From an uncultured Gemmatimonadaceae bacterium (lineage in GTDB: Bacteria; Gemmatimonadota; Gemmatimonadetes; Gemmatimonadales; Gemmatimonadaceae): a stretch of 64,000 bases of DNA. The notes below the pieces were generated by a model that saw only the letters and a program-made list of their open reading frames with translations, was not told the DNA's origin and made no database searches. This document shows positions 2,927 to 64,000 of this stretch, piece by piece. The translations under genes were made by a program, and so were the position numbers. The stretch is taken from positions 184,915 to 248,914 of the forward strand of contig CAWBOC010000002.1 of assembly GCA_963790305.1 (NCBI GenBank), in the 5' to 3' direction. The stretch's first letter is position 1. Every line of letters starts with the position of its first letter.

Positions 2927-4768
2927 TCAGTAGTCGACCGGGCGCAAATAGCTCTCCCCAATGGCATTCGGACTCACCATCGCGACCGTCGGAAGGCGGC
3001 GCTTCCAGTGCGTTCCCTCGAGGCGCTGCCTGACGAGCTCCACTTCCTTGGCCTCGAAGCCGCGCGCCACCAGCTCCGCGGGCGCGTAGCCGCTCAGCAG
3101 CCACTGCAGAATCCGATCGGCCTTCTCGTAGGTGATCCCGAAATCGCCCTCGTCGGTCTGGCCGTGTACGAGGTCGGCCGTCGCCGGCTTTTCGACGATC
3201 GTCTTCGGAACCCCGAGATGACGTGCCAGCTGCCACACCTGGGTCTTGAACAGGTCGCCGAGCGGGTTCACTGGCGGCGAATCGTCCGCGTGCCAGGTGA
3301 AATATCCGAACAGCCGCTCCGTCTTGTTCCCCGTGCCTAACGGAATGGCCTGGTGCTTCGACGACAGGTCGAACAGCGCGATCATCCGAACGCGCGCCAT
3401 CACGTTGCCGCGGCGACCCGGGGACGCGTCCGACTCGGCGGTGAGGTAGCCGTCCACCGCCGGTGAGATATCGAGCGTTCTCCCGGTGATGCCAAGCGCA
3501 TCGATGACGAGCTGCGCGTGCTCCAGGCTCTCCTTGCTCGACGTGCGGTACGGCAGTCGCACGCCAATGACGTTTTCCGGGCCAAGCGCGCGCGCCGCGA
3601 GATACGCGGTGACCGCCGAGTCGACGCCGCCGGAAATGCCGATGATCCCCTTCGTAAAGCCGCGACGCTTCACTTCCTCCTGGATGAAGTGGACCAACCA
3701 CTTCTCGGTGAGCTCACCGTCGATGTCGAGAGGCGGCGGCCCGCCCCCACCTTCCAGCGGAGTGGCCTGCACCACCCGCAGCGGTCCCCGCGCGGGCGGC
3801 TCCACATCGGGGTGCACCAACGCGTGATCGCCATTCTCGCTCGGCGGGTCGAACGCGAGTGGAGAGGCCTCACGAGTCTCCTTCGCCGTCAGGCTTTCCA
3901 TGAGATGCGGCATCGCGGTGCGCAGATCGGCCAGCAGCGGCATGTCCGCGCGCGCGCGAGTGAGGTCGGCGAGATCGAGGGGCAGCGTCACCAGCGCCTC
4001 GTCCCACAATGGAGCGCGGGTGCGGATGTCGCCCTTGGGGCCCGAGATGAGCGACGCGCCGGAGAAGATCTTTCCCCCTTCACTCCCGGCGAGATTCGCG
4101 AACGACACGAATACCCCGTGCTCCTCGGCGATATCGCGAATGAGCCGCTCCCATCGCGCGACGCTGGCAGGCCCCGGGATGGCATCGTCGCGAGGCCACG
4201 CGCCGCGCGCTGGCGCCGCACTCGACACGAAGATCACCTGCGCGCCGTCGAGCGCCGCCAGCGTGCCCGACAGCGAATGCCACGCATCCTCGCAGACGAG
4301 AATCGATGCCCGTCCCCATGGCGTGTCGAAGGCGTGGAACTCGTGACCGCGCTCGACGAATCGCTCCTCGTCGAACAGCCCGTACGTGGGCAGGAACACC
4401 TTGCGATGCACGTGCCGGACGTCAGGCCCCTCGGGCCCGAGCGTGACGTACATGGCGCTATTGAACAGTGTGTTCTGGAAGATCTCGTAAAAGCCGACGA
4501 CGACGTCGAGACTCGAAAGCCCATTGGTCGCACCGCGCCACGTCTCCTGGAGATCGCGCGCGAGGGTTCCTGCCGTCACCGCGAGATCGCGGACTCCCCC
4601 TTCCACGAAGTAGCCGGTGAGCGCGGTCTCGGGGAGATGAAGTACCTGCGGCCGTGGCCGCATCCCGTGCACCTGCGAGAACACCTCGCCGAGCCGCGTG
4701 AGGTTCGCGGCGTAGTCGCCCTTGGCGGGCTTGATCTGGGCGAGGGCTAGATGAACCAATGGCGCCAT
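2927..4768 (-). CDS. nadE: Glutamine-dependent NAD+ synthetase (nitrilase-fold glutaminase + synthetase)
   Basis: Nitrilase triad PE..RK..VCEDAW; synthetase GISGGVDSAV, GNVMARVRM, GTGNKTE, NPLGDLFKTQV, KPATADL..GQTDEGD. Confidence 0.95.
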   Translation of the reverse strand: MAPLVHLALAQIKPAKGDYAANLTRLGEVFSQVHGMRPRPQVLHLPETALTGYFVEGGVRDLAVTAGTLARDLQETWRGATNGLSSLDVVVGFYEIFQNTLFNSAMYVTLGPEGPDVRHVHRKVFLPTYGLFDEERFVERGHEFHAFDTPWGRASILVCEDAWHSLSGTLAALDGAQVIFVSSAAPARGAWPRDDAIPGPASVARWERLIRDIAEEHGVFVSFANLAGSEGGKIFSGASLISGPKGDIRTRAPLWDEALVTLPLDLADLTRARADMPLLADLRTAMPHLMESLTAKETREASPLAFDPPSENGDHALVHPDVEPPARGPLRVVQATPLEGGGGPPPLDIDGELTEKWLVHFIQEEVKRRGFTKGIIGISGGVDSAVTAYLAARALGPENVIGVRLPYRTSSKESLEHAQLVIDALGITGRTLDISPAVDGYLTAESDASPGRRGNVMARVRMIALFDLSSKHQAIPLGTGNKTERLFGYFTWHADDSPPVNPLGDLFKTQVWQLARHLGVPKTIVEKPATADLVHGQTDEGDFGITYEKADRILQWLLSGYAPAELVARGFEAKEVELVRQRLEGTHWKRRLPTVAMVSPNAIGESYLRPVDY

Positions 4769-4841
4769 CCCTCGAAAGATGGTCGTAACGCTGGGAACGG
4801 GCCAGTCCACTAGATGAACTTCCGCAGACGTCTGCGGAAGT

Positions 4842-15130: not shown

Positions 15131-17335
15131 TCAGTAGCGATAGTAGTCCACCGCTATCCTGAGTCCGCCGGCGGGGTCGCGACGCCAGATCACGAGAAAC
15201 TCCACCACCGACGTGCGATCGCCGTTCGGCCCGGTCGTCACGAGCGTCGACCGCCCGATCTGATACGGATTGTCGGGGTGTCCGCCGACGTCGATCACGT
15301 CGAGCTTCCAGGACTTGGCGTTGCGGATGCCGGTCCAATACTTGTCCACCGCTGCACGCCCCTGGACGAGCTCGCCACGTTCGCCGTCGATGCGCGCGTC
15401 GTCGGTATAGAAGCGAGCGACGGCGAGCATGTCGCCCGAGTTGAATGCGGCGACCATGGAGTCGTTGACAGCCTGGATCTCGGCGCGCAGGGCCGGATTC
15501 TGCACCGGCGCACGCACGACAGGTGAGGTCGCGGTAGGCGGACGCTCGCCGCGCTCCGCATGCGAAAACTCCCAGAGCACGTTCACGATCTTCCATTCCC
15601 CGTTCACGCGCGCGAGGTGCATGAGGTCGATCCAGTCCGTCATCCGTGCGCGCACACTCGCTGCGTTGCCGAAGATCTCGAGTATTTCGATTTCACGTCG
15701 ACGCAGCGCCTCTGGCGTCTCCTTGCCCCAGCCGCGCCGAGTTCCCTGAACCAGAGTCATCGCCGTCTGGTTCTCCATGCGGTTCGCACCGCGCTCGGGG
15801 TCGGGCCGCCAGATGCGCTTGGCCAGGTCGGCATGAACGGCGCGCTCCATCCGCGCGGCGTCGCCGGTGTACCAGCCATCCACGTAGTCCAGCGCGGCGG
15901 CTCTGATCGCCGCACTATCGACCGACGCGCCCGTCATGGGAACGCGCTCCAGCACCTGCCAGGAGCCCCACGTCAGGTGCGTGATGCGTCCGAGTGAGTC
16001 CTCGCGAAATCCGAACCGTCGCGCGCCATCCTCACTCGTGAAGAGGCGTGGACTGACCTCCACGAACTTGGCGCCGAATGCCGACAGCGTTCCGTCCTGG
16101 TTGGCGAGGACGTCAGTCTCGAACACCGGCCGGGGACTGGCGCAGGTATGACAGACGATGTTGCCACGATAGTGGCCCGCATAACGAGCGACCGCGCGGG
16201 CCGCGGCTTCCCGCGACGGGTGCATCGAGACCGGGCGCGTGCCAGCGCCTGGATTCCGCACCGGCGCAACGCGATCGAGCACCGCACGCGTGACCGTGTG
16301 GCGGAGATTGCTCCCCTCACGGTGGCCGGCGACGAACACGCCGAGCTTCCGCGCTGGCAACAGCGTAAGGAGCGAGGAGAAGCCGGCAACGTCGCCGCCG
16401 TGCTGTACACCCCGCTCGTCGTTTCCTCGCTGGATCTGCTGCCACCCGAGCCCATAACCGGGGAGCATCGGATGCATCGTGACCTGCTCGCGCTGCATCT
16501 CGCGAGTCATCCGCTCACTCAAGATCGCGCTGCGTCCCCCGAGCTGTGCGACCATGAAGCGCGCCATGTCCAACGCCGTGCTGTTGACCGATGACGCTGG
16601 CGTCGTGTGATACCATTCCCACGGCGCACGTACGGCGCTGTCCCCTTCGACGTCGTAAGGTATTGCCGTCTGCGAGCGAAAGGCCTCCGCGACCGTGATC
16701 GACGTCCGCGTCATGGCGAGCGGGCGCCAGATGCTGTCGACGAGATAGCGCTCGAAAGGGAGTCCCGAGACATCCTCGACGATGACGCCGGCCAGCGCGA
16801 TTCCGTACGTCGAGTACGCCGTCGCCGCGCCCGGTGGCGCGTACTGCACGAGCCGCGGGCGGAGATATTCCCGTAACGGCTGGAGGCTCGCCTCTCCGTC
16901 CGCGAGCGGACCCGGGCGGATCTCGTCCAGGGCCGCCGTGTGCGTCAGCAGATGCCGAACGGTCGTCGGCGTGCGATAGCGCGACCGGATCCGCAGGTCG
17001 CGCAGATAGGTGTTGACGCCGGAGTCGAAGTGGATGCGTCCGCGATCGGCCAGCTGCGCGACCGCAACGGCGGTCATGACCTTGCTGATCGATCCGATGC
17101 GGACAATCGTCGAGTCGGTCATCGGGCGCCGGCTCTCGATGTCGGCGAGGCCGTAGCCTTTCGAGAAGATCACTCGCCCACCATTCACCACCGTCACCAC
17201 CGCGCCCGGAATCCGCTCGGCGGCCATCGCCGCTGGCACAACCGAATCCAGCAGCGATCCCAAACCGGATGGGCTCTGCGCCGACGCGGCCCGCGTCAGG
17301 CAGCAGACGAGAAGAGCAGCGCTAAGCTTTGTCAT
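15131..17335 (-). CDS. Serine hydrolase (beta-lactamase/AmpC-like family) fused to two C-terminal NTF2-like domains
   Basis: SISK, HLLTHTA, YST, HGGD motifs; then AAIRAAALDYVDGWYTGD (lumazine-binding-like) and a DUF4440/SnoaL-like domain. Confidence 0.88.
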   Translation of the reverse strand: MTKLSAALLVCCLTRAASAQSPSGLGSLLDSVVPAAMAAERIPGAVVTVVNGGRVIFSKGYGLADIESRRPMTDSTIVRIGSISKVMTAVAVAQLADRGRIHFDSGVNTYLRDLRIRSRYRTPTTVRHLLTHTAALDEIRPGPLADGEASLQPLREYLRPRLVQYAPPGAATAYSTYGIALAGVIVEDVSGLPFERYLVDSIWRPLAMTRTSITVAEAFRSQTAIPYDVEGDSAVRAPWEWYHTTPASSVNSTALDMARFMVAQLGGRSAILSERMTREMQREQVTMHPMLPGYGLGWQQIQRGNDERGVQHGGDVAGFSSLLTLLPARKLGVFVAGHREGSNLRHTVTRAVLDRVAPVRNPGAGTRPVSMHPSREAAARAVARYAGHYRGNIVCHTCASPRPVFETDVLANQDGTLSAFGAKFVEVSPRLFTSEDGARRFGFREDSLGRITHLTWGSWQVLERVPMTGASVDSAAIRAAALDYVDGWYTGDAARMERAVHADLAKRIWRPDPERGANRMENQTAMTLVQGTRRGWGKETPEALRRREIEILEIFGNAASVRARMTDWIDLMHLARVNGEWKIVNVLWEFSHAERGERPPTATSPVVRAPVQNPALRAEIQAVNDSMVAAFNSGDMLAVARFYTDDARIDGERGELVQGRAAVDKYWTGIRNAKSWKLDVIDVGGHPDNPYQIGRSTLVTTGPNGDRTSVVEFLVIWRRDPAGGLRIAVDYYRY

Positions 17336-17511: not shown

Positions 17512-18228
17512 TCACTTTGCCTTCAGAAGCATCCGGAGCTTGGAGCTGTGCGTCCGACTCGAGGTGATTCGGGAACCATCCTTCATCGTCAGCACGTACT
17601 GGCCGTGCACATGCGGCTCGAGGGTCGCGACGCAATCCACGTTGACGATCGCGGAACGATGCACGCGGACGAACCTGCTCGGATCGAGCCTCGCCTCCAC
17701 GGATTTCAGCGTCTCCCGGACGAGATGCCGCCGCCCGCCGCTATGCAGGCGTGCGTAGTTCCCTTCGCCGGCGATCCACTCCACATCGGCAGCGCGCACG
17801 AGCGTCACCTTCGACGCCGAGCGCACGACGAATCGCGCCTCGGGTCGCGGACGCTCGCTGACGCGGGCGCGCGCGCGCGCCAGCGCTGCGCGGAACCGCG
17901 CGCGATCGAATGGCTTGAGGAGGTAGTCGACCGCGCTCACGTCGAACGCGCGGAGCGCGTACCCATCGTAGGCCGTCACCACGACGATGAAGGGCCGCTC
18001 CTCGGGAGTGAGCCGGGATTCGAGCAGCTGCACGAGACTGAACCCGTCCATCTCGGGCATCTGGACGTCGAGGAAGAGCACCTGCGGCGCCGATTCGAGG
18101 ATTCCCGTCAGCGCTTCCTCGCCTGTGCAGTACTCGCCGACGAGCGTGACGTCGGCCTCGTCGGCCACCAGCGCACGGATTCGTTCGCGTCCCAGGGGCT
18201 CGTCGTCGACCAGTGCGACGCGCAGCAT
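17512..18228 (-). CDS. LytTR-family response regulator
   Basis: LVDDE, FLDVQMP, DYLLKP receiver; FVRVHRSAIVN LytTR domain. Confidence 0.95.
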   Translation of the reverse strand: MLRVALVDDEPLGRERIRALVADEADVTLVGEYCTGEEALTGILESAPQVLFLDVQMPEMDGFSLVQLLESRLTPEERPFIVVVTAYDGYALRAFDVSAVDYLLKPFDRARFRAALARARARVSERPRPEARFVVRSASKVTLVRAADVEWIAGEGNYARLHSGGRRHLVRETLKSVEARLDPSRFVRVHRSAIVNVDCVATLEPHVHGQYVLTMKDGSRITSSRTHSSKLRMLLKAK

Positions 18229-18229
18229 C

Positions 18230-19318
18230 TCAGGCGGCGGCTGTGCGGAAGGGGATGTCGACGGCGACGAGCAACCCGCCCTCCTCGCCATTGGTGAGCT
18301 GGAGCGAGTGATCCGCGCCGTACCGCTCGCGCAGCCGCTCCCGCGTATTCGTTAGGCCGATCCCCTCGCGCGGAAAGCCGTTGCCCTGAAGGGCGGCGCC
18401 AGGACCGTCGTCCGAGACTGACAGGTGGAGACGCTCGCCGTCTCGCCTGGCCTGAATCGTCACGCGGCCACACCCCTGACGGGATCCGATGCCGTGCTGC
18501 AGCGCGTTCTCGACCAGCGGCTGGAGCACGAACCGCGGCACGAGCGCGCCATTTGTCTCGGTCGCGATCCGCACGTCGAGCGTGAGACGGTCCTCGAATC
18601 GCACCCGCGCGATGTCGAGGTACGCGTCCAGCAGCTCCAGTTCCTCGGCCAGCGGAACCTCGGGGCGGTCGCGACCGTCCAGCGTACGGCGCAGCAGATC
18701 GCCGAGGCGCGCGAGCATGGTGTCGGCCGCTTCGACGTCGCGGTGCATGAGCGTCGAGATGGCGTGCAGCGTATTGAACAGGAAGTGCGGCTGTAGCTGC
18801 GCCGTCAGTGTCTCGAGGCGCGCTTCGGCCAGCCGGGTCTCGAGGCGTGCGGCGCGCGCGGTGTCCTCCATGGCGCGGTGGTTGAACTCGACGGCATGGA
18901 TGACCGCGAACATGGCGGCGAATGCCATGAACTCGGTGACGATGTTGCCGACGATCAGGTTGCCGACGACGGCGCTGCGGTAGTCGGGGATGAGCCACCC
19001 GACGATCGCCGCGTACATGAAGTACTTGATCGGGACACACGCGAGCGCGACGACCATCTGCACGCCCACCGAGCGCCACCAGCGAGCGCGCTCCCACGGG
19101 ATCGCGCGCACGACCCAGAAGAACAACGGGGTAAAGATCGCGCACGTGTACCAGTCGGCGAGGCGGTCGATCACCACCTGCGACCACGGTACGGGACGAC
19201 CGTCGCGCATGAAGTAGATGGACGTCTGGGCCGCCGAGAGCAGCCCGAGCACGGTCCAGATGGCGAAGCCGAGTAGCCACCGGAGCGAGCGGCGGCCCGG
19301 TGCGGCAGGAGGAGACAT
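18230..19318 (-). CDS. LytS-like membrane sensor histidine kinase
   Basis: N-terminal TM helices; AQLQPHFLFNTL, LQPLVENALQHG, DDGPG, GIGLTNTRERL. Confidence 0.94.
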   Translation of the reverse strand: MSPPAAPGRRSLRWLLGFAIWTVLGLLSAAQTSIYFMRDGRPVPWSQVVIDRLADWYTCAIFTPLFFWVVRAIPWERARWWRSVGVQMVVALACVPIKYFMYAAIVGWLIPDYRSAVVGNLIVGNIVTEFMAFAAMFAVIHAVEFNHRAMEDTARAARLETRLAEARLETLTAQLQPHFLFNTLHAISTLMHRDVEAADTMLARLGDLLRRTLDGRDRPEVPLAEELELLDAYLDIARVRFEDRLTLDVRIATETNGALVPRFVLQPLVENALQHGIGSRQGCGRVTIQARRDGERLHLSVSDDGPGAALQGNGFPREGIGLTNTRERLRERYGADHSLQLTNGEEGGLLVAVDIPFRTAAA

Positions 19319-19401
19319 CCCGAAAGAATCTGACCGGCGAGCGGGGCGAGGCAAGCACTGCTCATCCCGTCGGACGGCCACTTCGTCTCAGGCGCGCCGG
19401 C

Positions 19402-20148
19402 TTACCTCCAGATGGAAGCGGCGGCGAGGCTGGCGCGCTCCCTCCACCGTTGCTCGTTCACGCCGGCGATGAGAAGCCAGAGGATAGTGGCTATCGCGCC
19501 CAGGAAGCCAACTCCGGCAACGACAGGGAACAGTCGCATGCCCAGCGGGGGCGACAGAAACGTCAGCCAACCCACGCTTCCGATCAACGTCAGGACACCG
19601 AGGAAGCGAGGCAGAAAGGTCGATTTGAAGACGAGGTATCCCTTCACGATTCCATAGAATCCGAAAAACGCGAGCGCCATTCCGGCGGCCTGATCGTTCA
19701 CCCGCAGGAATACGAGCGCGAGGGCATTCAGCTGGTCGGCATTGAATGCGCTCAGGGCCTGTGAGTTACCGCCGAGGACGAGCAGCGGCGCGAAGTAGAA
19801 AAGCCGACTGAGCGTCTTGATCGTGCAACCGACGAGACTGAAGACCGCCGCGAGGAGGGAAGCGCTTCTGCTGACCGGCTTGAGCAGGTAGTAGAAGAGC
19901 ACCGTCATTGCGATCTGGGCGGCCATCTCGACGAGGTAGATGGTGAACCCGAGCTGGAAGAGCGGCCTCTGCGTCGTGATGTTGGCCGCGGTGGCGGCGG
20001 CGTCGCCCGCTACCACGAGCCGTTCGCTGATGAACAACTGGGCGACGATGCCTCCCACGATCGTGAGCAGGTAGAACACGCCCGTGATTCGGGCCATGGT
20101 TCGGGGCGAGAGCTCGGCAATCCCTTTCATCGCAACGGGTGCACTCAT
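19402..20148 (-). CDS. DUF4386-family membrane protein
   Basis: ARITGVFYLLTI, GDAAATAANI, LFYYLLKPVSR, KSTFLPRFLG, LWLLIAGVN. Confidence 0.82.
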   Translation of the reverse strand: MSAPVAMKGIAELSPRTMARITGVFYLLTIVGGIVAQLFISERLVVAGDAAATAANITTQRPLFQLGFTIYLVEMAAQIAMTVLFYYLLKPVSRSASLLAAVFSLVGCTIKTLSRLFYFAPLLVLGGNSQALSAFNADQLNALALVFLRVNDQAAGMALAFFGFYGIVKGYLVFKSTFLPRFLGVLTLIGSVGWLTFLSPPLGMRLFPVVAGVGFLGAIATILWLLIAGVNEQRWRERASLAAASIWR

Positions 20149-20813
20149 GCTGGCATCCTCCCCGCAACGCCCTTCGTGAGCAGCCAAAGCGCGAGCGCAA
20201 CCTCGAACACCAGCATCGGCAGCCACATCAGCATCGCGATCGGGCCGTGGAGGAATCCGGCGTAGATGACCGGCAGACAAACCACCAGCAGCACCAATGC
20301 GCCAACGCCGAGCCATGCGAGAGGGATTGGGATCATTCGTCCCCGCAGAAGAAGCCACGAGAACAGCGTGCTCCCCACGGCGAAGAAAGTCGCGGGGAGG
20401 GCGACATCGTCCCTCAGCAGGTAGCCAGCAAGGGTGTGCGCTGCCGCCGTCGCGGATGCGTCCGCTCCCGTCGACGTCGCCAGCGAGAACACGGTGAGGA
20501 TGCCGGGGATGGAAAGGCCGCCAATGATCCCCTCGCCGACGCGACAGGTGAGACCAAGCATTGCCAGGTCGTTGTCCTCGTCACGCGTGATCGCCCACAG
20601 CGTGACGCCCAGCACGAGTGCCGAGAAAGCCTGAACGAATCCGAGCAGGACCACGATGCCCACGGTGGTCTCGTGTCCCCCGATGCTCGCGAGCTTTTCT
20701 GCGATGGCATCTCCGCGGGTCGCCTGGCGAAACAGCACCATGCTGGTGATGCCAGCCGCGATGTAGACGAGAAACGTCGAACCGGCGATTCGGGCGTTCG
20801 TGGTGCGCGTCAT
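20145..20813 (-). CDS. DUF4386-family membrane protein (second copy)
   Basis: ARIAGSTFLVYI, RGRMIPIPLAWLG, PMLVFEVALALWLLTKG; 4-nt overlap with the next gene. Confidence 0.8.
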   Translation of the reverse strand: MTRTTNARIAGSTFLVYIAAGITSMVLFRQATRGDAIAEKLASIGGHETTVGIVVLLGFVQAFSALVLGVTLWAITRDEDNDLAMLGLTCRVGEGIIGGLSIPGILTVFSLATSTGADASATAAAHTLAGYLLRDDVALPATFFAVGSTLFSWLLLRGRMIPIPLAWLGVGALVLLVVCLPVIYAGFLHGPIAMLMWLPMLVFEVALALWLLTKGVAGRMPA

Positions 20814-21090
20814 GGTCCCCTCGAGGCTGCGCGGAGGCCGCCACGCCAATGAAGCCGTTCACCGACGCGGCAGGCTTGAAGTCGGCCCTATGGGAAGGCC
20901 ATACGAGGGCGTCCGCGCAAAGTTTCGAGAGGTCTGTGGGTGCCGGTGATCGCGGGAGTCTGCGTGGGTGATGCGTTCGGCAGAACTCAGCGGGGCGCGC
21001 GGGCTCGGATCGAACCGTCAATGCCACCGGGGGCGTGATCGCCGGGAGAGAGCTCTCCCTCCTGGCCACTTCGAGCATATAAGGCACCCG

Positions 21091-21109
21091 GGGACTTGCG
21101 GCAAGGCCC
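21091..21109. promoter_or_regulatory. RAE (rifamycin-[17 protein letters not shown])-like 19-bp inverted repeat
   Basis: GGGACTTGC-G-GCAAGGCCC, 8 of 9 positions self-complementary, 67 nt upstream of the monooxygenase ATG; matches the CTTGCGGCAAG core of the actinobacterial RAE as recalled. Confidence 0.75.
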
Positions 21110-21176
21110 AGGTCGTGTCGCAGAATCGTCGGCCGAAACAATCGGCCGAAGCCAGAACCTACGGAGAGGGGTGGCG

Positions 21177-22676
21177 ATGATCGAGCATGCAGTGGTGATC
21201 GCCGGCGGAGGTCCGACAGGGCTGATGCTGGCAGGCGAGCTGGCGTTGGCGCGGGTCGACGTCGCGATTGTCGAGCGGCGCCCAAGCCAGCACCTCGCCG
21301 GCTCGCGCGCGGGCGGCCTGCACTCACGCACCATCGAGGTCCTCGATCAACGCGGCATCGCGGATCGGTTCCTCTCGGAGGGACAGGTGGCTCAGGTTGC
21401 GGGGTTCGCCAGCGTCCGTTTGGACATCAGCGACTTCCCCACCCGACACAATTACGGGCTCGGGCTGTGGCAGAACCACATCGAGCGCATCCTGGCCGGC
21501 TGGGTCGGCGAGCTGGCGGTGCCGATCTATTACGCCAGTGAAGTCACAGGCTTCACGCAGGACGACACCGGCGTCAATGTCCAGCGGTCCGACGGCCGGT
21601 CGCTACGAGCGCAGTATCTCGTCGGGTGCGACGGAGGACGCAGTCTGATCCGGAAGGCAGCCGGCATCGACTTCCCGGGGTGGGATCCGACGACCAGCAG
21701 CCTGATCGCCCAGGTCGAGATGACGGAGGAGCCGGAATTGGGCATCCGCCGCACTCCCTCGGGCATGCACGCCCTCGGCAAGGTCGAGTACGAGATCAAA
21801 GACGGCCAGGTGGTCTACAAGCCAGGGGGGACGGTTGGCGTCATGCTGACCGAGTCGCACGTCGGACGCACGAGCGAGCCCACCCTGCGCGATCTCAGCG
21901 AGGGTCTCATCGCGGTTTACGGCACTGATTACGGGATCCACAGTCCCACCTTCATCTCCCGGTTCACCGACATGACTCGTCAGGCAGCGACCTACCGCCA
22001 GGGACGGGTGCTGCTGGCCGGCGACGCGGCGCACGTGCATTCCCCGGTCGGTGGACAGGGCCTCAACACGGGCGTGCAGGATGCGGTGAACCTGGGATGG
22101 AAGCTGGCGCAGGTCGTCAAAGGAATATCGCCCGAACGCCTCCTGGATACCTACCACGCCGAGCGCCATCCGATCGCTGCACGCGTGCTGCGCAACACGA
22201 TGGCGCAAGTCGCGCTCATGCGCGTCGACGATCGCGTCGAGGCGTTGCGCGACACCGTGTCCGAGCTGCTGAGCATGGACGAGCCGCGTAAGCGATTCGC
22301 CGCGATGATGTCCGGTCTGGACATTCGGTACGAGCTCGGCGAGGGACACCCGCTGCTGGGCCGACGCATGCCCGACCTCGACCTCGGCACGCCTAACGGG
22401 CCGCGGCGGGTCTTCACCCTGCTGCACGATGCCCGACCGGTGCTGCTCAACCTCGGTGCGCCAGGCGTCTTCGACATCACTCCGTGGCGTGATCGCGTTC
22501 AAATGGTCGACGCGAAATACGATGGGCCGTGGGAGCTTCCGGCCCTCGGGGCGGTCACGCCTCCCACCGCCGTGTTGGTTCGACCCGACGGATACGTGGC
22601 CTGGGTGGGAGACCTGGCCCAGGTGGGGCTCGTCGACGCGCTCACCACCTGGTTCGGACCGCCTGCTGCGCCGTAG
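21177..22676 (+). CDS. Group A FAD-dependent monooxygenase, rifampin monooxygenase (Rox)-like
   Basis: GGGPTGLMLAGEL, YLVGCDGGRS, GTDYGIHSP..SRF, LAGDAAHVHSPVGGQGLN, ERHPIAARVL, LVRPDGYVAWVG..WFG. Confidence 0.9.
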   Translation: MIEHAVVIAGGGPTGLMLAGELALARVDVAIVERRPSQHLAGSRAGGLHSRTIEVLDQRGIADRFLSEGQVAQVAGFASVRLDISDFPTRHNYGLGLWQNHIERILAGWVGELAVPIYYASEVTGFTQDDTGVNVQRSDGRSLRAQYLVGCDGGRSLIRKAAGIDFPGWDPTTSSLIAQVEMTEEPELGIRRTPSGMHALGKVEYEIKDGQVVYKPGGTVGVMLTESHVGRTSEPTLRDLSEGLIAVYGTDYGIHSPTFISRFTDMTRQAATYRQGRVLLAGDAAHVHSPVGGQGLNTGVQDAVNLGWKLAQVVKGISPERLLDTYHAERHPIAARVLRNTMAQVALMRVDDRVEALRDTVSELLSMDEPRKRFAAMMSGLDIRYELGEGHPLLGRRMPDLDLGTPNGPRRVFTLLHDARPVLLNLGAPGVFDITPWRDRVQMVDAKYDGPWELPALGAVTPPTAVLVRPDGYVAWVGDLAQVGLVDALTTWFGPPAAP

Positions 22677-22685
22677 CGGGCCGAG

Positions 22686-23153
22686 CTACCGCGGCCGAAG
22701 CTCCCAGAGCACGTTGACGATGACCCACCGGTCGTTCCACCGGGCGACGTGCAGGTAATCGACCCAGCTGTCGGCGTCGACCCGCACGCTGGCCGTGTTG
22801 CCGAAGATGTCGAGGATGCGAACGTCCTTGCGTTGCTCGGCGACCGGCGTGTCCTTCCCACCGCCGCCACGCGTATTGACGACGAGCGTCATCGCGCTCT
22901 GGTGCCCGAGCACGCGGCGTCCGCGCTGGTCGGTATTCATGATTCGCTTCGCCAGATCCGGGTGAACCGCGCGCTCCATGCGCTCGGCGTTCCCGGTGTA
23001 CCAGCCCTCGATGTAATCGAGCGCAGGGGCTCGGATCGCCGCGCTGTCGGCCGCGGACTGTGCGGGCACCATGGTGGGGAGTGCGAGCGTTGCGATCCAG
23101 GCGATCGTGATCGAGATGCGCCTGCTGCGTGGGATGGCGTTGCTTGCTGGCAT
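22686..23153 (-). CDS. Exported NTF2-like (lumazine-binding-like) protein
   Basis: DSAAIRAPALDYIEGWYTGNAERMERAVHPDLAKR...WVDYLHVARWNDRWVIVNVLWE. Confidence 0.82.
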   Translation of the reverse strand: MPASNAIPRSRRISITIAWIATLALPTMVPAQSAADSAAIRAPALDYIEGWYTGNAERMERAVHPDLAKRIMNTDQRGRRVLGHQSAMTLVVNTRGGGGKDTPVAEQRKDVRILDIFGNTASVRVDADSWVDYLHVARWNDRWVIVNVLWELRPR

Positions 23154-23190
23154 GTTGGCGCCCGAAGTGATGGGTTGGTGTGAGGTGTGG

Positions 23191-23883
23191 CTATCGAAGC
23201 CAAAGGTATCGGCGCGCGTTGCTCGGAGGCAGCGGCGGGACCGGGGGGACGGGAGCAGTCGCGGGGCTCAATTCCCAGAGGGGTCGGTCAGCATCGGATG
23301 GGTCTCCTCTCTCGATCACGCCCCCGTGCTCGATCGATTGCGTGACGCGCGCATCGCCCCAATACGTGATGTTCCCACCCTCCACGACGCTGGCGACCAA
23401 CGCGGTGAACGGCCTCACGAAAATCCTGCCGCCACTCAGCACCGAGGCGGTGACGCTCCCTACCGACATCGACCGGATGTCGACACCGCCGCCATTGTCG
23501 ACGTCGACGCGAATCTCCGCCTGACGCGGGAAGCCGCCCCGGCTCTGGATCATTCCTCCTTGAGCGACGGAGACGCGCGCGACCTCCGGAGTGAGAATCT
23601 CGATCTCAATGTCGTACCCTCGGCCGCACTTGCTCTTGCATTTGTCGATCACCAGCTCGCCTCCCGACGCGACGGTGACCTGCGTGTGCTCGGGGCTGCC
23701 TCTGAGGAAGGTCACGCGCTGGGTCGACCCATACCGAAGGAACACCTTGCCGCCGTGCCGCAGCTCGACGGAGCGGAACGGCGCAACTGCCACCGACATG
23801 GGTTCCGACTGGGCCGCCGCCTGACCGGAGGGGATTCCGGAAAGCACCAGCACCCCGCAGACCCGCGCAACGATGGATGTCAT
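23191..23883 (-). CDS. DUF2807/GIN-domain-like exported beta-helix protein
   Basis: RBS CAGGAG; signal peptide; FRSVELRHGG, repeated xxGGxI units, GGNITYWGD. Confidence 0.72.
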   Translation of the reverse strand: MTSIVARVCGVLVLSGIPSGQAAAQSEPMSVAVAPFRSVELRHGGKVFLRYGSTQRVTFLRGSPEHTQVTVASGGELVIDKCKSKCGRGYDIEIEILTPEVARVSVAQGGMIQSRGGFPRQAEIRVDVDNGGGVDIRSMSVGSVTASVLSGGRIFVRPFTALVASVVEGGNITYWGDARVTQSIEHGGVIERGDPSDADRPLWELSPATAPVPPVPPLPPSNARRYLWLR

Positions 23884-23908
23884 GATCTTCTCCTGTGGTC
23901 GCCGCTCG

Positions 23909-23961
23909 CGATACCTTGTCATTCGACAATACGGCGGCTGTTGTCGAACGTCAAGGTATCG
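23909..23961. promoter_or_regulatory. 53-bp imperfect palindrome upstream of the DUF2807-like gene
   Basis: CGATACCTTG-tca-TTCGACAA-N11-TTGTCGAA-cgt-CAAGGTATCG. Confidence 0.55.
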
Positions 23962-23982
23962 GCCACAACGAGTACTACGCGC

Positions 23983-24381
23983 TTACCGGCGGTCGAATTC
24001 CCACACGTTGTCCTGGTCGCGTCCGGCTCCGCGAATCCGCTCCGTAGCCCGTAGTCGGCGCCCCCCGTCGGTGAGCTGGTAGCGCCACGTCATGACCACG
24101 GCGGCCTCCGGCGAACCCATCCGGTTCTCGGTGACGAGCGCCTCTTGCTCCCAGTAGCAGCGGGAACTGTCGTGCGCGCTCACCACGCTCTCATGGCCAT
24201 CCGTGAGGCGCTCGAAGCTGAACTCGACCGCGTCAGCGGCGCTGGCGAACCTTGCCGAGCAGCGAAATCGCGGCTCATCGTGCTCGATGCGGAGCACGGC
24301 GGTCTCGATCGCCGCAGCGCTGGCGCTGAGCGCGCTCGCTTGTCGGTTCAGGACGTAGTCGCCCGAATAGTTGGGCTTCAC
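23983..24381 (-). CDS. Hypothetical protein (lipocalin-like beta-barrel possible)
   Basis: RBS GGAGGG before GTG; PNYSGDYVLNRQAS start; alternating beta-strand pattern. Confidence 0.7.
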   Translation of the reverse strand: MKPNYSGDYVLNRQASALSASAAAIETAVLRIEHDEPRFRCSARFASAADAVEFSFERLTDGHESVVSAHDSSRCYWEQEALVTENRMGSPEAAVVMTWRYQLTDGGRRLRATERIRGAGRDQDNVWEFDRR

Positions 24382-24517
24382 GGTGTCCCTCCGAGTTACA
24401 AGGGTGTAGCTGACGTCACCTGGGTGTCAGCAGATTATTCCCTGTGTGATGACTTGCCCTAGGAGAGTGCCCCTGGATTTCCCGCTCTTCACCTTTGGAA
24501 ACGACTAAGAGGAGCCC

Positions 24518-29791: not shown

Positions 29792-30120
29792 GGTGGGAAT
29801 CTCGGCGGGGAGCCGTCGGGCGAGCGGAATGCCCGTGCGACTCGTCAGGCAGCTTCAGCGAACGGAGGGCGCACCGTTGCGCCCGGCGCAAGAAAATGCG
29901 TGATCCGGTGGATTTCGGAAAGGCCCAACCTACCCGGAAGCGGCGCTCGCCCGCTCCCCGCGGGTCCCGGCCGACGGAGAGTTGCGGCCCACGCGCCAGC
30001 CCGTAGCTTAGCAGCACCGGCGCGCTCATCCGCGCAGGTCTCCCGGAAGGCCTCCCGACGGTGCGATTCCCCGTCAGTGGAGGCGTACAGCAGCTCGCCC
30101 GTTCTCGCCACGAGGTGCTC

Positions 30121-33100
30121 ATGAGTACGCGCAGTCTGATTCGCGCGGTCGGGTTGACCGCATCGTTGGGGATGTTCGCCAGCGGCATCGCTGGCGCCCA
30201 GGAACAGCAGGGGACCATCACCGGCCGCGTCACTGACGCGTCGACGAGCGAGCCTATCGCGGCCGCGCAGATCAGCGTGGTCGGAACGGCGATTGGTGCC
30301 GGAACCAACAGCGAGGGGCGCTACACCATCCGCGGTGTTCGCCCCGGCATCGTCGAGTTGCGTGTGCTGCGGGTGGGCTACGCCGAGCGGAAACAGTCAG
30401 TGACCGTTGCCGCGGGACAACCGACCACCGCGGACTTCGTGATGACCGTTGCCCCGATCTCGCTGGCTCCGGTCGTCACGACGGCCACCGGCGAGCAGCG
30501 GCGCGTCGAGCTCGGTAACTCGATTGGAAACGTCGACGCGGCGAAGCTCACGGAGGAGAAGCCCATCACGAACATCGGCGATCTCCTCGCCTCACGCGTC
30601 TCCGGAGTCACCGTGACTCCCGGCGTACAGACGGGCGCGGGCATCCGCATCCGGATCCGCGGGACGAGCTCGCTCTCGCTCACCAACAATCCGATCTACG
30701 TCATCGACGGAATCCGCGTCGAAGGCACCACCGGCGCCTCGTCGGTGAGCGTGGGCGGGACGACGGTGAGTCGCGTCGGCGACATCAACCCGGAAGAGAT
30801 CGAATCGATCGAGATCGTCAAAGGTCCCTCGGCGGCAACGCTCTACGGCACCGACGCCGCGAACGGCGTCGTGGTGATTCGCACCAAGCGTGGGGTCGCG
30901 GGTCGCCCGCAGTGGACGTACTACACCGAGCAGACGGCCATTACCGATCGCAACGATTACCCCACGGCCTATCGCGCGTGGCGTACCGGTACGACTGGCA
31001 CGACGAACTCGACGCCCGCGAACACGGTTCAGTGCTTCCTGAGCCAGGTGCTGACGGCGGCGTGCACGCAGGACAGCGTCACCAGCTTCAACCTGCACGA
31101 GGACGACGAGACGACGCCGTACGGAGTCGGCTATCGCCAGCAACACGGCTTGCAGCTGGCCGGCGGCTCCGAGGCCGTCCGTTACTTCGTGCACGGCGAG
31201 TGGGAGGATGAGGATGGTGTGACCAAGCTGCCGAAGTTCGAGGAGCGGTATCTGGCCGCGCGCGGACTGTCGCTCCGGGACGAGCAACAGGATCCCAACC
31301 ATTTGCGGCGCATCACGGGTCGCGCCAACATCAGCTTCGCCCCCCGCGACAACCTCGACCTTGCCGTGCACGCCGGATACACGTCGCTCGACATCCGGTT
31401 GCCGATGAGCGATGACTCGGGCACCCCCGGCATTGCGGCGAACACGTACGGAGGACCGGGCTTCAAGTACAACGTGAACGCCGCGGGGGACACCCTCTAT
31501 GGCTGGCGCGAGTTTACCCCGCGCGACGTCTACGAGGCCGTGACCGAGCAGAACATCGAGCGCCTCATCAGCTCCGTCTCGGCGAACTGGCGCCCGCGCG
31601 AGTGGTTGGCCGTGCGCAGCAATTTCGGCGTCGACTACATCAATCGCGTTGATCTGCAACTGTGTCGCTTCAGCGAGTGCACGAACACCACCGACCGCGC
31701 GGGCTTCAAGGAAGACAATCGGACCAACTACTTCCTGTACACGCTGGACGCGGGCGCAACGGCCACTCGCCAGCTGACCACCGCCCTCGAATCCCAGACG
31801 ACGGCCGGCCTTCAGGTCACCCGAAACGCGTTCAATCGCAATGGCGCGCGCGGCGAACAGCTGCCACCTGGCGCCACGACGGTGGGCACGGGAAGCGTCA
31901 TCCGCGCCGATGAAGCCACCACCGAGAGCCGGACGGTCGGAGCCTTTATCGAGCAGCGCATGGCATTCCGCGACCGCCTGTTCGTGACCGGCGCGATCCG
32001 CTCGGATCGCAACAGCGCCTTCGGTGCCGACTTCAAGACGGTGTTCTACCCCAAGTTCTCGGTGTCGTGGATCCTGTCGGACGAGCCGTTTTTCCCGGCG
32101 ATCGGGTGGCTCGACCAGTTCCGGTTCCGCACCGCGTACGGGGCGTCGGGCGTGCAGCCCGGGACCACCGACGCGGTGCAGTTCTACACCAGCACCCGCA
32201 CGATCGGCGAGAGCGGCGAAGTCACGGGTGTCGCCTACAGCACGTTAGGCAACCGCGACCTCAAACCGGAACGATCCAATGAGTGGGAGGGCGGGTTCGA
32301 CGCCAGCTTCTTCAACAGCCGGTTGAACACGGAGATCACCTACTACCGAAAGATTTCCAAGGATGCGCTCGTCAGCCGTACGCTTCCGCCGTCCATCGGG
32401 ACGGGCGCCACGACACGCTTCGAAAACCTGGGAGAAGTACGCAACTCCGGGTGGGAGGCGATGATCGACGCCCAGATTCTCGATCTCGATCAGTTCGGGT
32501 GGAACCTGACGGTCACGGGGTCGACGAACAGCAACAAGCTCGTCAGCCTCGGCGGCGTGCCACCGGTCATTACCAGCAGCACCCTCCGGCAGGTCGAGGG
32601 GTATCCGCTCAATGGATGGTGGTCGCGGCGCCTGGTCAGCTATAACGACGCCAACCGCGATGGCATCATTGCGGCCAGCGAGATCCAGGTGAGTGCCGAC
32701 GTCCAATTCCACGGCTACTCATCCCCCCGTCGCGAAGCCGCCTTCACCAATTCACTCAGCTTCCTGAACCGTCGGCTGCGGCTCTCCGCGATGATGGATT
32801 ACAAGGGTGGGCACCTGGTCTACAACAACAGCGAGCGCATCCGCTGCGCCAGCCGGTTCAACTGCGCGGGCCTCGTCTCTCGCAATGCCTCGCTGTTCGA
32901 GCAGGCGCGGACGGTGATGGTGCGAGAGGACCCGAGCCGGTCGGTCGCGGGATTCTTCGAGAAGGGCGACTTCCTCCGCTTCCGCGAGCTCGCGCTCACG
33001 TTCACTCCCTCAGAGCAATTGGCCTCCCGCCTGTTCCGCGGCAGGAGCATCAGCGCCACGGTCGCGGCCCGCAACCTGGGAATGCTCTGGACCGAGTACA

Positions 33101-33207
33101 CGGGCGTCGATCCGGAAGCGTTCGGAACCACCGGCGATGCCCCGTCCTCGTTCCAGGCATTCGGCCCGCCCACGTACCTGTCGTTCCGCCTCAACCTCGG
33201 CTTCTAG
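30121..33207 (+). CDS. SusC/RagA-family TonB-linked outer membrane protein
   Basis: Carboxypeptidase-regulatory-like N-domain; plug IRIRG..NPIYVIDG..DINPEEIESIEIVKGPSAATLYGTDAANGVVVIRTKRG; LKPERS; terminal Phe. Confidence 0.95.
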   Translation: MSTRSLIRAVGLTASLGMFASGIAGAQEQQGTITGRVTDASTSEPIAAAQISVVGTAIGAGTNSEGRYTIRGVRPGIVELRVLRVGYAERKQSVTVAAGQPTTADFVMTVAPISLAPVVTTATGEQRRVELGNSIGNVDAAKLTEEKPITNIGDLLASRVSGVTVTPGVQTGAGIRIRIRGTSSLSLTNNPIYVIDGIRVEGTTGASSVSVGGTTVSRVGDINPEEIESIEIVKGPSAATLYGTDAANGVVVIRTKRGVAGRPQWTYYTEQTAITDRNDYPTAYRAWRTGTTGTTNSTPANTVQCFLSQVLTAACTQDSVTSFNLHEDDETTPYGVGYRQQHGLQLAGGSEAVRYFVHGEWEDEDGVTKLPKFEERYLAARGLSLRDEQQDPNHLRRITGRANISFAPRDNLDLAVHAGYTSLDIRLPMSDDSGTPGIAANTYGGPGFKYNVNAAGDTLYGWREFTPRDVYEAVTEQNIERLISSVSANWRPREWLAVRSNFGVDYINRVDLQLCRFSECTNTTDRAGFKEDNRTNYFLYTLDAGATATRQLTTALESQTTAGLQVTRNAFNRNGARGEQLPPGATTVGTGSVIRADEATTESRTVGAFIEQRMAFRDRLFVTGAIRSDRNSAFGADFKTVFYPKFSVSWILSDEPFFPAIGWLDQFRFRTAYGASGVQPGTTDAVQFYTSTRTIGESGEVTGVAYSTLGNRDLKPERSNEWEGGFDASFFNSRLNTEITYYRKISKDALVSRTLPPSIGTGATTRFENLGEVRNSGWEAMIDAQILDLDQFGWNLTVTGSTNSNKLVSLGGVPPVITSSTLRQVEGYPLNGWWSRRLVSYNDANRDGIIAASEIQVSADVQFHGYSSPRREAAFTNSLSFLNRRLRLSAMMDYKGGHLVYNNSERIRCASRFNCAGLVSRNASLFEQARTVMVREDPSRSVAGFFEKGDFLRFRELALTFTPSEQLASRLFRGRSISATVAARNLGMLWTEYTGVDPEAFGTTGDAPSSFQAFGPPTYLSFRLNLGF

Positions 33208-62284: not shown

Positions 62285-64000
62285 TCACTGAAATGGTGTG
62301 CTGCTCGGTGGCTGCTGCTCCGGAGGACGCTCCCTGATCTTCGGAGCCTGACCGTAGTTGAACTGGAACGTCAGCCATGCCGAGCGCACGCCGAACTTGC
62401 GCACGGTCAGCTGCTGGACGTTGTCATCGCCCACGGTGACGCGGAACCGGTTGGTATTAAAGGGATCGTTGACGCGCAACCCAACGACCGCCTTGTCGCC
62501 GTTCAGCTTCTTTCGTACCGAGAACTGCATGCCCTGAAACGCCTCGAAGCGGCCGCGCTCGATGTTCATCGGCGCACGGTAGAAGTAGCTCGCCTGAACG
62601 GTGAACGTCTGCGTTAGCTGCGATGTGGCATTGAAGCGCGCCGACCACGTCACCGCGCTCGATCCGATGGCGGACTCGGATCCCCCATCGGTGACCTGCT
62701 TGAAGACATTGAAGCTCGTGAGCCCGTTGAACTTCGGCCCGAAGCGCAGGGAGCCGTTCAGGTCCGCGCCCCACGAGTTGCTGGTGGCGAGGTTCTCGAA
62801 CGAGATCGACGTCACTTCGCGAGAATTGATCGTGTCGGCCGTGTTGATGTTGACGCGGATGATGTCGCTGGTGTGGCGGAAGAACGGCGAGAACTGGATC
62901 GACCCGAGCTTGCCCGTGCGGCTCAGCCCAAGCTCGATCGCGTCGGTGTACTCGGGGTTCAGCTCGGGATTGCCAAGGAAGACGTTCTGGAGATCGAAGA
63001 ATGACGGGAACGGATTCAGCTCCTGCGTGCCCGGGCGGCGAATACGGCGCGAGTAGCTCATCTTGAGCTGCGTCGCCTCGCTCGGGTTGTACATAATGAC
63101 ACCGCTGGGGAAGAGACTGGCGTAGTCGTACGGAAACTCCTCCGCATCCAGCTGGAAGTTGCGGCTCGCGTGCTCGGCGCGCAGTCCAGCCTGGACCTGC
63201 ACCTTGCCCGCGTTCCGGCTCAGCACACCATACGCGGCGTGCACCGTCTCGTCGAACTCGAAGTCGTTGCTCATGTCGCTGCGCGTCCAGTCGCCTTCCC
63301 CTAACGAGTCCGTCTCGACGAGGAAGTCGCGATCGAGCAAGCGGGCGTTGCCCTTGTACCCCGTCTCGAGCTTGTAGGCGGTGCCGAACGAGCGGGTGTA
63401 GTCGGCCTGCGCCGTGAACTGCTTGGTGATGGCGTCGGTGAAGTTGTTCTCCCCTTCGACCGGGAAGCTCGTCGGGCTGCCCGAGCTGTTGAGCGGCTGC
63501 TTCCAGAACACCGAGCCGTCTTCGTCGTGTGAGCGGTTGAAGCGCACCTCGGTGGCCAGCTCGTGCTTGCGCGGCTCCATGACCCGCTTCAGCGCGATGG
63601 TGTAGTCGACCATGAACCCGCGCGTGTCGCTGTTGCGGGGACGGCTGTAGTAGTCGATCGGGGAACGCTCCTCATCGAGCTCGGTGTACCGGCTCGTCTG
63701 CGTGTCACCGCCATGACGGCGATTGATCGACAGCGCGTTCGACAGGGTGGTCTTCTGCGACAGCCTGTAATCGACGGTAGTGTTCAGGTTCTGGCCCTTA
63801 CCGCCCGTGCGACCGCCAATGTCCTGGTTGGTGACGCTCAGGAGCGACCGCACCGCATCGAAGCGCTCTCGATCGTTGATGCCCTCGATCTCACGATCGT
63901 CCGAGTAGACGCCGAGGTTCGACATGAGCGACAGTGGACCGCTCTGGTAGCCGACGTTGCCGGAGGCATTGTAGCGATCGGTTTCCGCGATGCTGCTGCT
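62285..64000 (-). CDS. TonB-dependent receptor / outer membrane beta-barrel family; 5' part beyond the window
   Basis: QAGLRAEH, LFPS, SYSRRIRRP..LNPF, GNPELNPEYT, LRVNDPFNT, FQFNYG. Confidence 0.9.
   Translation of the reverse strand, partial: SSSIAETDRYNASGNVGYQSGPLSLMSNLGVYSDDREIEGINDRERFDAVRSLLSVTNQDIGGRTGGKGQNLNTTVDYRLSQKTTLSNALSINRRHGGDTQTSRYTELDEERSPIDYYSRPRNSDTRGFMVDYTIALKRVMEPRKHELATEVRFNRSHDEDGSVFWKQPLNSSGSPTSFPVEGENNFTDAITKQFTAQADYTRSFGTAYKLETGYKGNARLLDRDFLVETDSLGEGDWTRSDMSNDFEFDETVHAAYGVLSRNAGKVQVQAGLRAEHASRNFQLDAEEFPYDYASLFPSGVIMYNPSEATQLKMSYSRRIRRPGTQELNPFPSFFDLQNVFLGNPELNPEYTDAIELGLSRTGKLGSIQFSPFFRHTSDIIRVNINTADTINSREVTSISFENLATSNSWGADLNGSLRFGPKFNGLTSFNVFKQVTDGGSESAIGSSAVTWSARFNATSQLTQTFTVQASYFYRAPMNIERGRFEAFQGMQFSVRKKLNGDKAVVGLRVNDPFNTNRFRVTVGDDNVQQLTVRKFGVRSAWLTFQFNYGQAPKIRERPPEQQPPSSTPFQ

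Follow-up and report, generated by a model that had tools for sequence, protein, structure and literature searches.

The rifamycin-associated element (RAE) came to light first at rgt. In the available portions of the published reports, it is described as a palindrome of 19 bp that precedes arr, rox, rph, rgt, and helR in Actinobacteria (10.1101/2021.05.10.443488; 10.1101/2021.05.10.443476). The same portions state that the element is required for induction, with a mechanism that was undescribed as of 2021 to 2022 (10.1101/2021.05.10.443488; 10.1101/2021.05.10.443476; PMC10719064), and that the RAE-linked genes studied so far all act on rifamycins (10.1101/2021.05.10.443488). Here, we describe an RAE upstream of a flavin monooxygenase gene in an uncultured Gemmatimonadaceae bacterium (GCA_963790305.1). 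The two lie in a 64,000-nucleotide (nt) stretch of contig CAWBOC010000002.1 (positions 184,915 to 248,914), which we refer to as the window. The literature that we searched, with subscription journals and supplements outside its scope, contained no report of an RAE in phyla beyond those surveyed, which in the available portions of these sources were Actinobacteria and, in the case of HelD, also Firmicutes. We also searched the literature for monooxygenases acting on rifamycins from Gemmatimonadota or Chloroflexota and retrieved nothing relevant.

The window resembles the RAE-rox arrangement of Streptomyces (S. venezuelae and others) in that one gene for a group A flavin monooxygenase has a 19-bp RAE in its promoter. 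The promoter modules are homologous over ~130 nt, and the proteins have the same fold and domain set. As differences, the protein in the window (P0001) is 44% identical to a true rox product and scores below the Rox cutoff, the host belongs to the Gemmatimonadaceae, and both induction and substrate are predicted. A second likeness is to RAE-rgt. The conserved promoter segment that carries the palindrome, here called the cassette, runs into an Rgt-like gene in one record (L083), and Rgt-like remnants stand behind it in 14 monooxygenase loci, whereas no Rgt codons are recognizable in the window. At the protein level, P0001 qualifies for NCBIfam NF005303 (PRK06834, "hypothetical protein"), a family whose description mentions neither a function, nor the RAE, nor rifamycin. 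The aromatic polyketide hydroxylases OxyS, PgaE, and CabE and oxygenases of the MtmOIV type are its best or near-best relatives of solved structure (326 to 387 bits); a single fold is common to all near relatives, Rox and OxyS included. The genes for those hydroxylases and oxygenases lie in biosynthetic clusters, whereas the window gene stands alone behind a promoter of the resistance type.

On balance, we favor the reading that the window contains a horizontally acquired, self-contained RAE-monooxygenase unit, for which enzyme activity and rifamycin induction are predicted. The unit would span positions 21048 to 22676 (~1.63 kb) and would have entered the Gemmatimonadaceae chromosome by horizontal transfer. 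It would combine the RAE promoter module found at actinobacterial rifamycin-resistance genes (an upstream block, the palindrome overlying the -35 position, a -10 element of the form CAnAAT, and a leader with a ribosome-binding site) with a PRK06834 flavin monooxygenase of group A, from the sister clade of Rox. Its features, with the evidence for each, are as follows.

21048-21090, + strand: upstream conserved block ..CTCC..CCACTT..A..TATA..GCACC.. (start of blastn homology; invariant columns)
21091-21109, no strand assigned: RAE, 19-bp inverted repeat GGGACTTGCGGCAAGGCCC (matches, matrix score, conservation)
21121-21126, + strand: -10-like hexamer CAGAAT, family consensus CATAAT (conservation; 11 nt downstream of the RAE)
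21127-21176, + strand: putative 5' leader with a conserved CCAGAACCTACGG block and the ribosome-binding site GGAGAGGGG at 21163-21171 (alignments A2 and A3)
21177-22676, + strand: FAD (flavin adenine dinucleotide)-dependent monooxygenase P0001, 499 amino acids (aa), PRK06834 clade (open reading frame, domains, NCBIfam)

The palindrome and its promoter module

A preliminary description of this DNA had placed an RAE-like palindrome at 21091 to 21109, 67 nt before a monooxygenase gene, and our analysis reproduced both the coordinates and the spacing. The gap runs from the end of the RAE to the ATG at 21177, and the open reading frame (ORF) ends at 22676. The element precedes the coding sequence by less than 500 bp on the same strand, which is the criterion of Surette et al. 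Eight of the nine pairs of bases across the two arms are complementary; the exception, pair 4/16, is A/G.

To the 11-nt core by itself we attach no significance, since it matched once in the window and 1.78 matches are expected at up to one mismatch. The full pattern, GGGNCTTGCGGCAAGNCCC, specifies 17 bases, and at up to two mismatches it is expected 0.04 times per window. It was found only at 21091 to 21109, once per strand, and no second site appeared anywhere in the 64 kb at up to three mismatches. The preliminary description had proposed scoring the site with a weight matrix. Our matrix, which is not fully independent because its 26 actinobacterial training sites (23 from the ortholog loci introduced below and 3 from plasmids) were all picked by the same two-mismatch rule, gave the window RAE 25.6 bits and the runner-up position in the window 10.3 bits. 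Under leave-one-out scoring, the training sites themselves received 19.1 to 31.0 bits; the maxima of 30 shuffled windows averaged 10.5 bits, with a top value of 17.2. In the available portion of its methods, a recent preprint uses four 19-mers as RAE queries (bioRxiv 10.1101/2025.08.06.668190), and the window RAE is identical at 18 of 19 bases to the published query GGGGCTTGCGGCAAGGCCC. The same 19-mer stands, identical, upstream of the ortholog in a metagenome-assembled genome (MAG) of the Actinomycetota (L076).

We next turn to relatives of P0001. From at least 579 relatives in a genome scan, we took the best 80 as ortholog loci; their proteins are 73 to 88% identical to P0001. The exact core occurs in 24 of the 80, in each case just upstream of the gene. 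With up to two mismatches allowed, an RAE is present in 32 of the 80, in every case no more than 600 nt upstream of the gene; the remainder of the 681,694 nt of these loci has none. Aligning the window with the 32 palindrome-bearing loci (33 cassettes; alignment A2), we found the core CTTG..AAG.CC to be invariant in all 33.

Conservation extends well beyond the palindrome. On the upstream side, blastn homology to the ortholog loci that share the cassette begins at window positions 21048 to 21066, and alignment A2 has the pattern CTCC..CCACTTCCAA..TATA..GCACC. The invariant columns of this block are common to the promoter regions of rox, of an Rgt-like gene, and of Nocardia farcinica (A2 and A3, the latter a seven-way alignment presented in the next section). 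The block at 21048 to 21090 may be an upstream promoter or a factor site. Downstream of the palindrome lies a near-invariant xAxAAT, with A 21122, A 21124, A 21125, and T 21126 each conserved in at least 90% of the 33 cassettes, and we take 21121 to 21126 as the probable -10 element. Because this -10-like element is 11 nt downstream of the RAE, the RAE would cover the -35 position. The same RAE/-35 geometry is described for promoter 2 of Mycobacterium smegmatis helD in the available portion of PMC10719064. The leader follows with the conserved pattern CGCCGGCCGA..CCAGAACCTACGG..GGGAGG in A2. The preliminary description had presented a 19-bp element: the RAE identity stands, given 18 of 19 matching bases and homologous flanks, but what is conserved is a module of ~130 nt rather than 19 bp alone.

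There is a second dyad, GGGAGAG-AG-CTCTCCC, at 21044 to 21059, ~32 nt upstream of the RAE, and other cassettes have GGAG-N6-10-CTCC in the equivalent place. An inverted-repeat search tool listed neither the RAE nor terminal repeats flanking the unit, and no transposon-like ends were seen.

Common descent with rox and Rgt-like promoters

Outside the ortholog set, the module occurs at rox and Rgt-like genes. As a query, the window's 136-nt cassette matched 40 plasmid or secondary-replicon records, all actinobacterial. The 120-nt cassette of one ortholog locus (L064) matched 43 such records, distributed among Streptomyces (36), Streptantibioticus (2), Embleya (2), Nocardia (1), Nonomuraea (1), and Pseudooceanicola (1), and in 5 of the 43 the match lies at a gene flagged as S. 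venezuelae-type rox. The Pseudooceanicola record, from an alphaproteobacterium, is absent from the matches to the window cassette. In record L082, the cassette stands upstream of an annotated rox whose product scores 911.4 bits on the rif_monoox profile (cutoff, 800). In L083, it abuts a glycosyltransferase gene that has one strong family match, to Rgt; since its 548 bits fall below the cutoff of 800, we call it Rgt-like. Invariant columns are distributed over ~130 nt of the seven-way alignment A3. Because these ~130 nt of flanks are homologous to the promoter regions of a bona fide Streptomyces rox gene and the Rgt-like gene, we conclude that the window palindrome is an RAE by descent and not a look-alike.

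Traces of rgt are also present within the ortholog set. In 14 of the 32 RAE-bearing loci, at least 95 nt separate the palindrome from the monooxygenase gene. In 12 of these (L002, L007, L014, L034, L040, L045, L052, L053, L055, L057, L063, and L066), the ATG of the cassette opens an ORF of 14 to 112 aa, and its stop codon and the monooxygenase start codon overlap in the sequence ATGA; in the other two (L071 and L080), the stub is fused in frame to the monooxygenase. Most of the 12 short ORFs have an Rgt-like N terminus of the MRV(S/L)LSTYGSRGDVEP type. The longest, the 112-aa stub of L063, matches NF000354, the rifamycin-inactivating glycosyltransferase Rgt, over profile positions 1 to 107 (E = 1.4e-27). 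On the simplest reading, the stubs are remnants of a deleted rgt, and the ancestral arrangement would have been an RAE-rgt-monooxygenase operon from which rgt was deleted to varying extents. The remnants may now work as coupled leader ORFs. The window has no recognizable Rgt codons, and its leader is joined directly to the monooxygenase ATG.

Movement of the unit among phyla

The host is a member of the Gemmatimonadaceae; the preliminary description had taken it as apparently non-actinobacterial and probably of the Gemmatimonadota. The contig that carries P0001 has a length of 248,914 bp. NAD synthase NadE (2927 to 4810) is 95% identical to Gemmatimonadaceae proteins at NCBI; among the 11 matches listed with an organism name, 10 are from Gemmatimonadaceae or Gemmatimonadota and 1 carries both Anaerolineae and Gemmatimonadaceae names. 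Genes of Gemmatimonadaceae type or for outer-membrane proteins lie on both sides of the unit (at 2.9 to 4.8, 30 to 33, and 62 to 64 kb), and the GC content is 0.65 to 0.67 throughout the window.

The unit itself has a much wider distribution. Record titles assign the ortholog loci to seven phyla: Actinomycetota (46 loci), Chloroflexota (20), Gemmatimonadota (6), Pseudomonadota (3), and one locus each in Methylomirabilota, Myxococcota, and Acidobacteriota, with two loci unclassified. The RAE is present in 23 of the 46 Actinomycetota loci, 5 of the 6 Gemmatimonadota loci, all 3 Pseudomonadota loci, 1 of the 20 Chloroflexota loci, and none of the 5 others. Several of the 80 loci are on contigs of 0.3 to 2.8 Mb, and 4 belong to cultured Arthrobacter strains. 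The Pseudomonadota loci with an RAE are on contigs of 903, 920, and 317 kb, and neighboring genes are consistent with the labels at L055 (an OmpA-family protein) and L058 (TctC). Close homologs (85 to 90% identity) are abundant in metagenome collections, and those with names include ones from a Gemmatimonadaceae MAG and Marilutibacter alkalisoli.

When we compared window positions 19500 to 24500 with all 80 loci by blastn, homology was confined to 21048 to 22704, at 75 to 89% DNA identity. Clustering of 1,418 flanking ORFs yielded no family in more than 8 of the 80 loci, and synteny was seen only among three related Arthrobacter loci. Since no neighbor gene is common to the loci, there is no common regulator. 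We also inferred a phylogeny with FastTree from 98 rows (the window, 77 loci, and 20 representatives; L016, with an internal stop, and the short segments L043 and L079 were left out). Many of its inner forks are weakly supported. Phyla are intermixed in this phylogeny; among 76 labeled rows, we counted no fewer than 17 switches of phylum label and no fewer than 17 of RAE presence. In contrast, the identity of the host NadE falls from ~90% to ~73% inside its own family. We conclude from these patterns that the RAE and the PRK06834 monooxygenase gene form a solitary unit that has moved among phyla. The preliminary description had noted the lack of a dedicated adjacent regulator and had offered an imported cassette as one alternative. 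Both points held: no regulator lies beside the gene in the window or is conserved across the ortholog loci, and import is favored by the confined homology and the intermixed tree.

Individual loci differ in which parts of the module remain. L005 and L021 retain the palindrome core, with a -10 region and leader that diverge from the consensus. L024, L032, and L054 have the GTGC(C/T)GCA(G/T)AATC block of the -10 region and no recognizable RAE; the palindrome may have been lost there and the promoter retained.

A flavin monooxygenase from a sister clade of Rox

P0001 has an FAD_binding_3 domain (PF01494, 3e-81) and a C-terminal Rng_hyd_C domain (PF21274, 1e-27), the combination of a group A flavin monooxygenase, as had been claimed. 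A longer ORF starting from TTG at 21096 was rejected, as that start lies inside the palindrome and homologs align from the ATG at 21177. Against NF005303, the PRK06834 subfamily profile, P0001 scored 918.2 bits (cutoff, 625), with residues 1 to 497 aligned to profile positions 1 to 486 of 488. Of 150 listed representatives, 57 full-length proteins were scanned; P0152 was near-Rox (783 bits), and P0121 (859 bits) and P0122 passed the PRK06834 cutoff. On the tree, P0121 groups tightly with the window and the loci in one clade (support, 99 to 100) apart from the near-Rox row. We therefore place P0001 outside Rox proper and within the sister clade PRK06834. The earlier label of a Rox-like enzyme survives in part: P0001 is a relative of Rox, with 44% identity to the bona fide rox product of L082 and shared domains, but it falls outside the curated Rox family.

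We compared the predicted pocket with the 14 rifampicin-contact residues listed for the rifampicin monooxygenase RIFMO in the available portion of PMC11375879. In a hand-read phmmer alignment with indels near R201, 6 of the 14 positions are identical in P0001, 4 are conservative, and 4 are different.

Proposed function and competing explanations

Under the favored reading of a transferred RAE-monooxygenase unit, the enzyme would oxygenate rifamycins or closely related ansamycins and inactivate them as Rox does, and the presence of a rifamycin would raise transcription through whatever reads the RAE. We consider it likely that P0001 inactivates rifamycins. Because no regulator travels with the unit, the RAE reader would have to occur in many phyla, with RNA polymerase itself as a possible candidate, or else be missing from this host. 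If it were missing, the promoter would be expected to run at a basal level.

Several observations weigh against this reading. Rifamycin induction here would depend on an RAE-reading factor in the Gemmatimonadaceae cell. Because a sigma-70 consensus scan of 20800 to 21250 returned no promoter, with a -35 match that amounts to no more than TTG, the promoter is assigned from conservation only. The taxon labels come mostly from metagenome bins. As many as 48 of the 80 orthologs are without an RAE, including the nearest relatives of P0001, which are the Chloroflexia loci L001, L003, and L030. An ortholog on the Sinorhizobium meliloti conjugative megaplasmid pSymA (L081; CP140942.1, 419873 to 421372; 73% DNA identity) has no RAE at up to three mismatches and follows a LysR-type gene, with a major facilitator superfamily (MFS) transporter gene and wrbA nearby; in some hosts, then, this clade is under different regulation. 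As for the enzyme, P0001 scores 468.8 bits on rif_monoox (NF033145), below the curated equivalog cutoff of 800, and its best relative of solved structure is OxyS, a hydroxylase of the tetracycline pathway (4k2x, 387 bits), ahead of the Rox structures 5vqb and 5kow (358 bits). The differing contacts are R43 to G46, F69 to A72, V93 to G94, and T284 to V291; both Rox enzymes of solved structure retain V93 and T284, and R43 and F69 differ in the S. venezuelae enzyme too.

It is possible, if on the whole unlikely, that the RAE module is a real import that persists here as a silent relic read by no factor, with the gene expressed constitutively from the -10 element and rifamycin having no effect on expression. 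The actinobacterial distribution of the RAE in the available portions of published work would fit, as would the lack of a traveling regulator, the RAE-less majority of orthologs, and a window -10 (CAGAAT) that is weaker than the family consensus. A relic would not be expected to persist as the palindrome has, in five of six Gemmatimonadota and three of three Pseudomonadota loci. This retention, together with the survival of the core in L005 and L021 despite a replaced -10 region and leader, suggests selection on the palindrome itself.

We find it doubtful that the PRK06834 enzyme instead acts on another aromatic compound (a polyketide, quinone, or xenobiotic), with the RAE as a captured promoter or one with a wider ligand range. 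The score below the Rox cutoff, OxyS as the best solved match, and a pocket that differs at positions conserved in both Rox structures are each consistent with another substrate, and so are the many orthologs that lack an RAE and the one beside a LysR gene. Such a substrate is harder to reconcile with a cassette that is the same as the one at true rox and Rgt-like genes, or with the Rgt remnants between cassette and gene in 14 loci, which point to an old operon of rgt and monooxygenase devoted to rifamycins. The action on rifamycins of all RAE-linked genes studied so far, within the available portion of that report, also speaks for a rifamycin substrate.

A further alternative is that the palindrome acts not as a DNA site but at the RNA level, as a hairpin (an attenuator or a processing site) within a transcript that starts at a promoter farther upstream. 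Two observations make this conceivable: in the available portion of PMC10719064, the M. smegmatis helD RAE lies downstream of the first transcription start, and the conserved TATA-containing block stands just upstream of the palindrome in our alignments. Against a hairpin, pair 4/16 is complementary in only 13 of the 33 cassettes, most changes in the central pairs disrupt pairing, and the remaining pairs vary little or not at all, with no covariation. A terminator consensus scan of 20800 to 21250 found none, and no U-tract follows the palindrome. The putative leader folded no better than shuffled sequences (z = 0.36) and thus has no stable structure, for which reason we discarded the idea of a riboswitch-like leader; scans of the window with Rfam (gathering thresholds) and for tRNAs gave no matches. 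The pairing pattern fits a sequence-specific DNA site, short of proof, and lends no support to a hairpin, which we regard as improbable. That the palindrome arose by chance, or that the contig is truly actinobacterial and was misassembled or misbinned, is scarcely credible: beyond the nonsignificant 11-nt core nothing specific favors it, chance is refuted by the expectation of 0.04 full patterns per window and by ~130 nt of flanking homology, and misbinning conflicts with the Gemmatimonadaceae-type and outer-membrane genes on both sides of the unit and with the even GC content.

We also put forward a broader and decidedly tentative proposal. The RAE could be a portable, host-independent rifamycin switch that senses the drug through a universal component, most simply an RNA polymerase held at the promoter, and PRK06834 could be a rifamycin-inactivating family of wide distribution that escapes current resistance-gene models. 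A portable switch with no dedicated regulator would explain how the RAE, in the company of single resistance genes, reached Gemmatimonadota, Pseudomonadota, and Chloroflexota. RAE sensing has so far been sought in an actinobacterial factor. The module is kept in at least three further phyla upstream of a near-identical gene with no regulator alongside, which would leave as options a reader that is widely conserved or a mechanism that needs no factor, and the cross-phylum loci offer natural test cases for RAE sensing. Our results also flag the PRK06834 monooxygenases, highly conserved across phyla, as a probable rifamycin-inactivating family. Because the clade scores below the curated Rox threshold, resistome surveys that use such models would probably overlook it.

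Neighboring genes

Other annotated features of the window are as follows.

17512-20849, - strand: LytTR response regulator, LytS-type histidine kinase, and two tandem DUF4386 membrane-protein genes, upstream of the unit
22686-23153, - strand: lumazine-binding-like gene, just downstream of the monooxygenase gene
30061-33207: TonB-dependent receptor with a CarboxypepD_reg domain (domain match)
62285-63925: outer-membrane beta-barrel protein (domain match)

None of the neighbors (the LytTR, LytS, DUF4386, and lumazine-binding-like genes) recurs beside the orthologs. We considered a common insertion site with the Gemmatimonadota locus L021, since both have DUF4386 upstream, and rejected it because the two proteins are unrelated (BLASTP E = 0.41). 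Farther upstream, at 15131 to 17335 on the - strand, a 734-aa protein combines serine beta-lactamase, lumazine-binding-like, and SnoaL-like domains.

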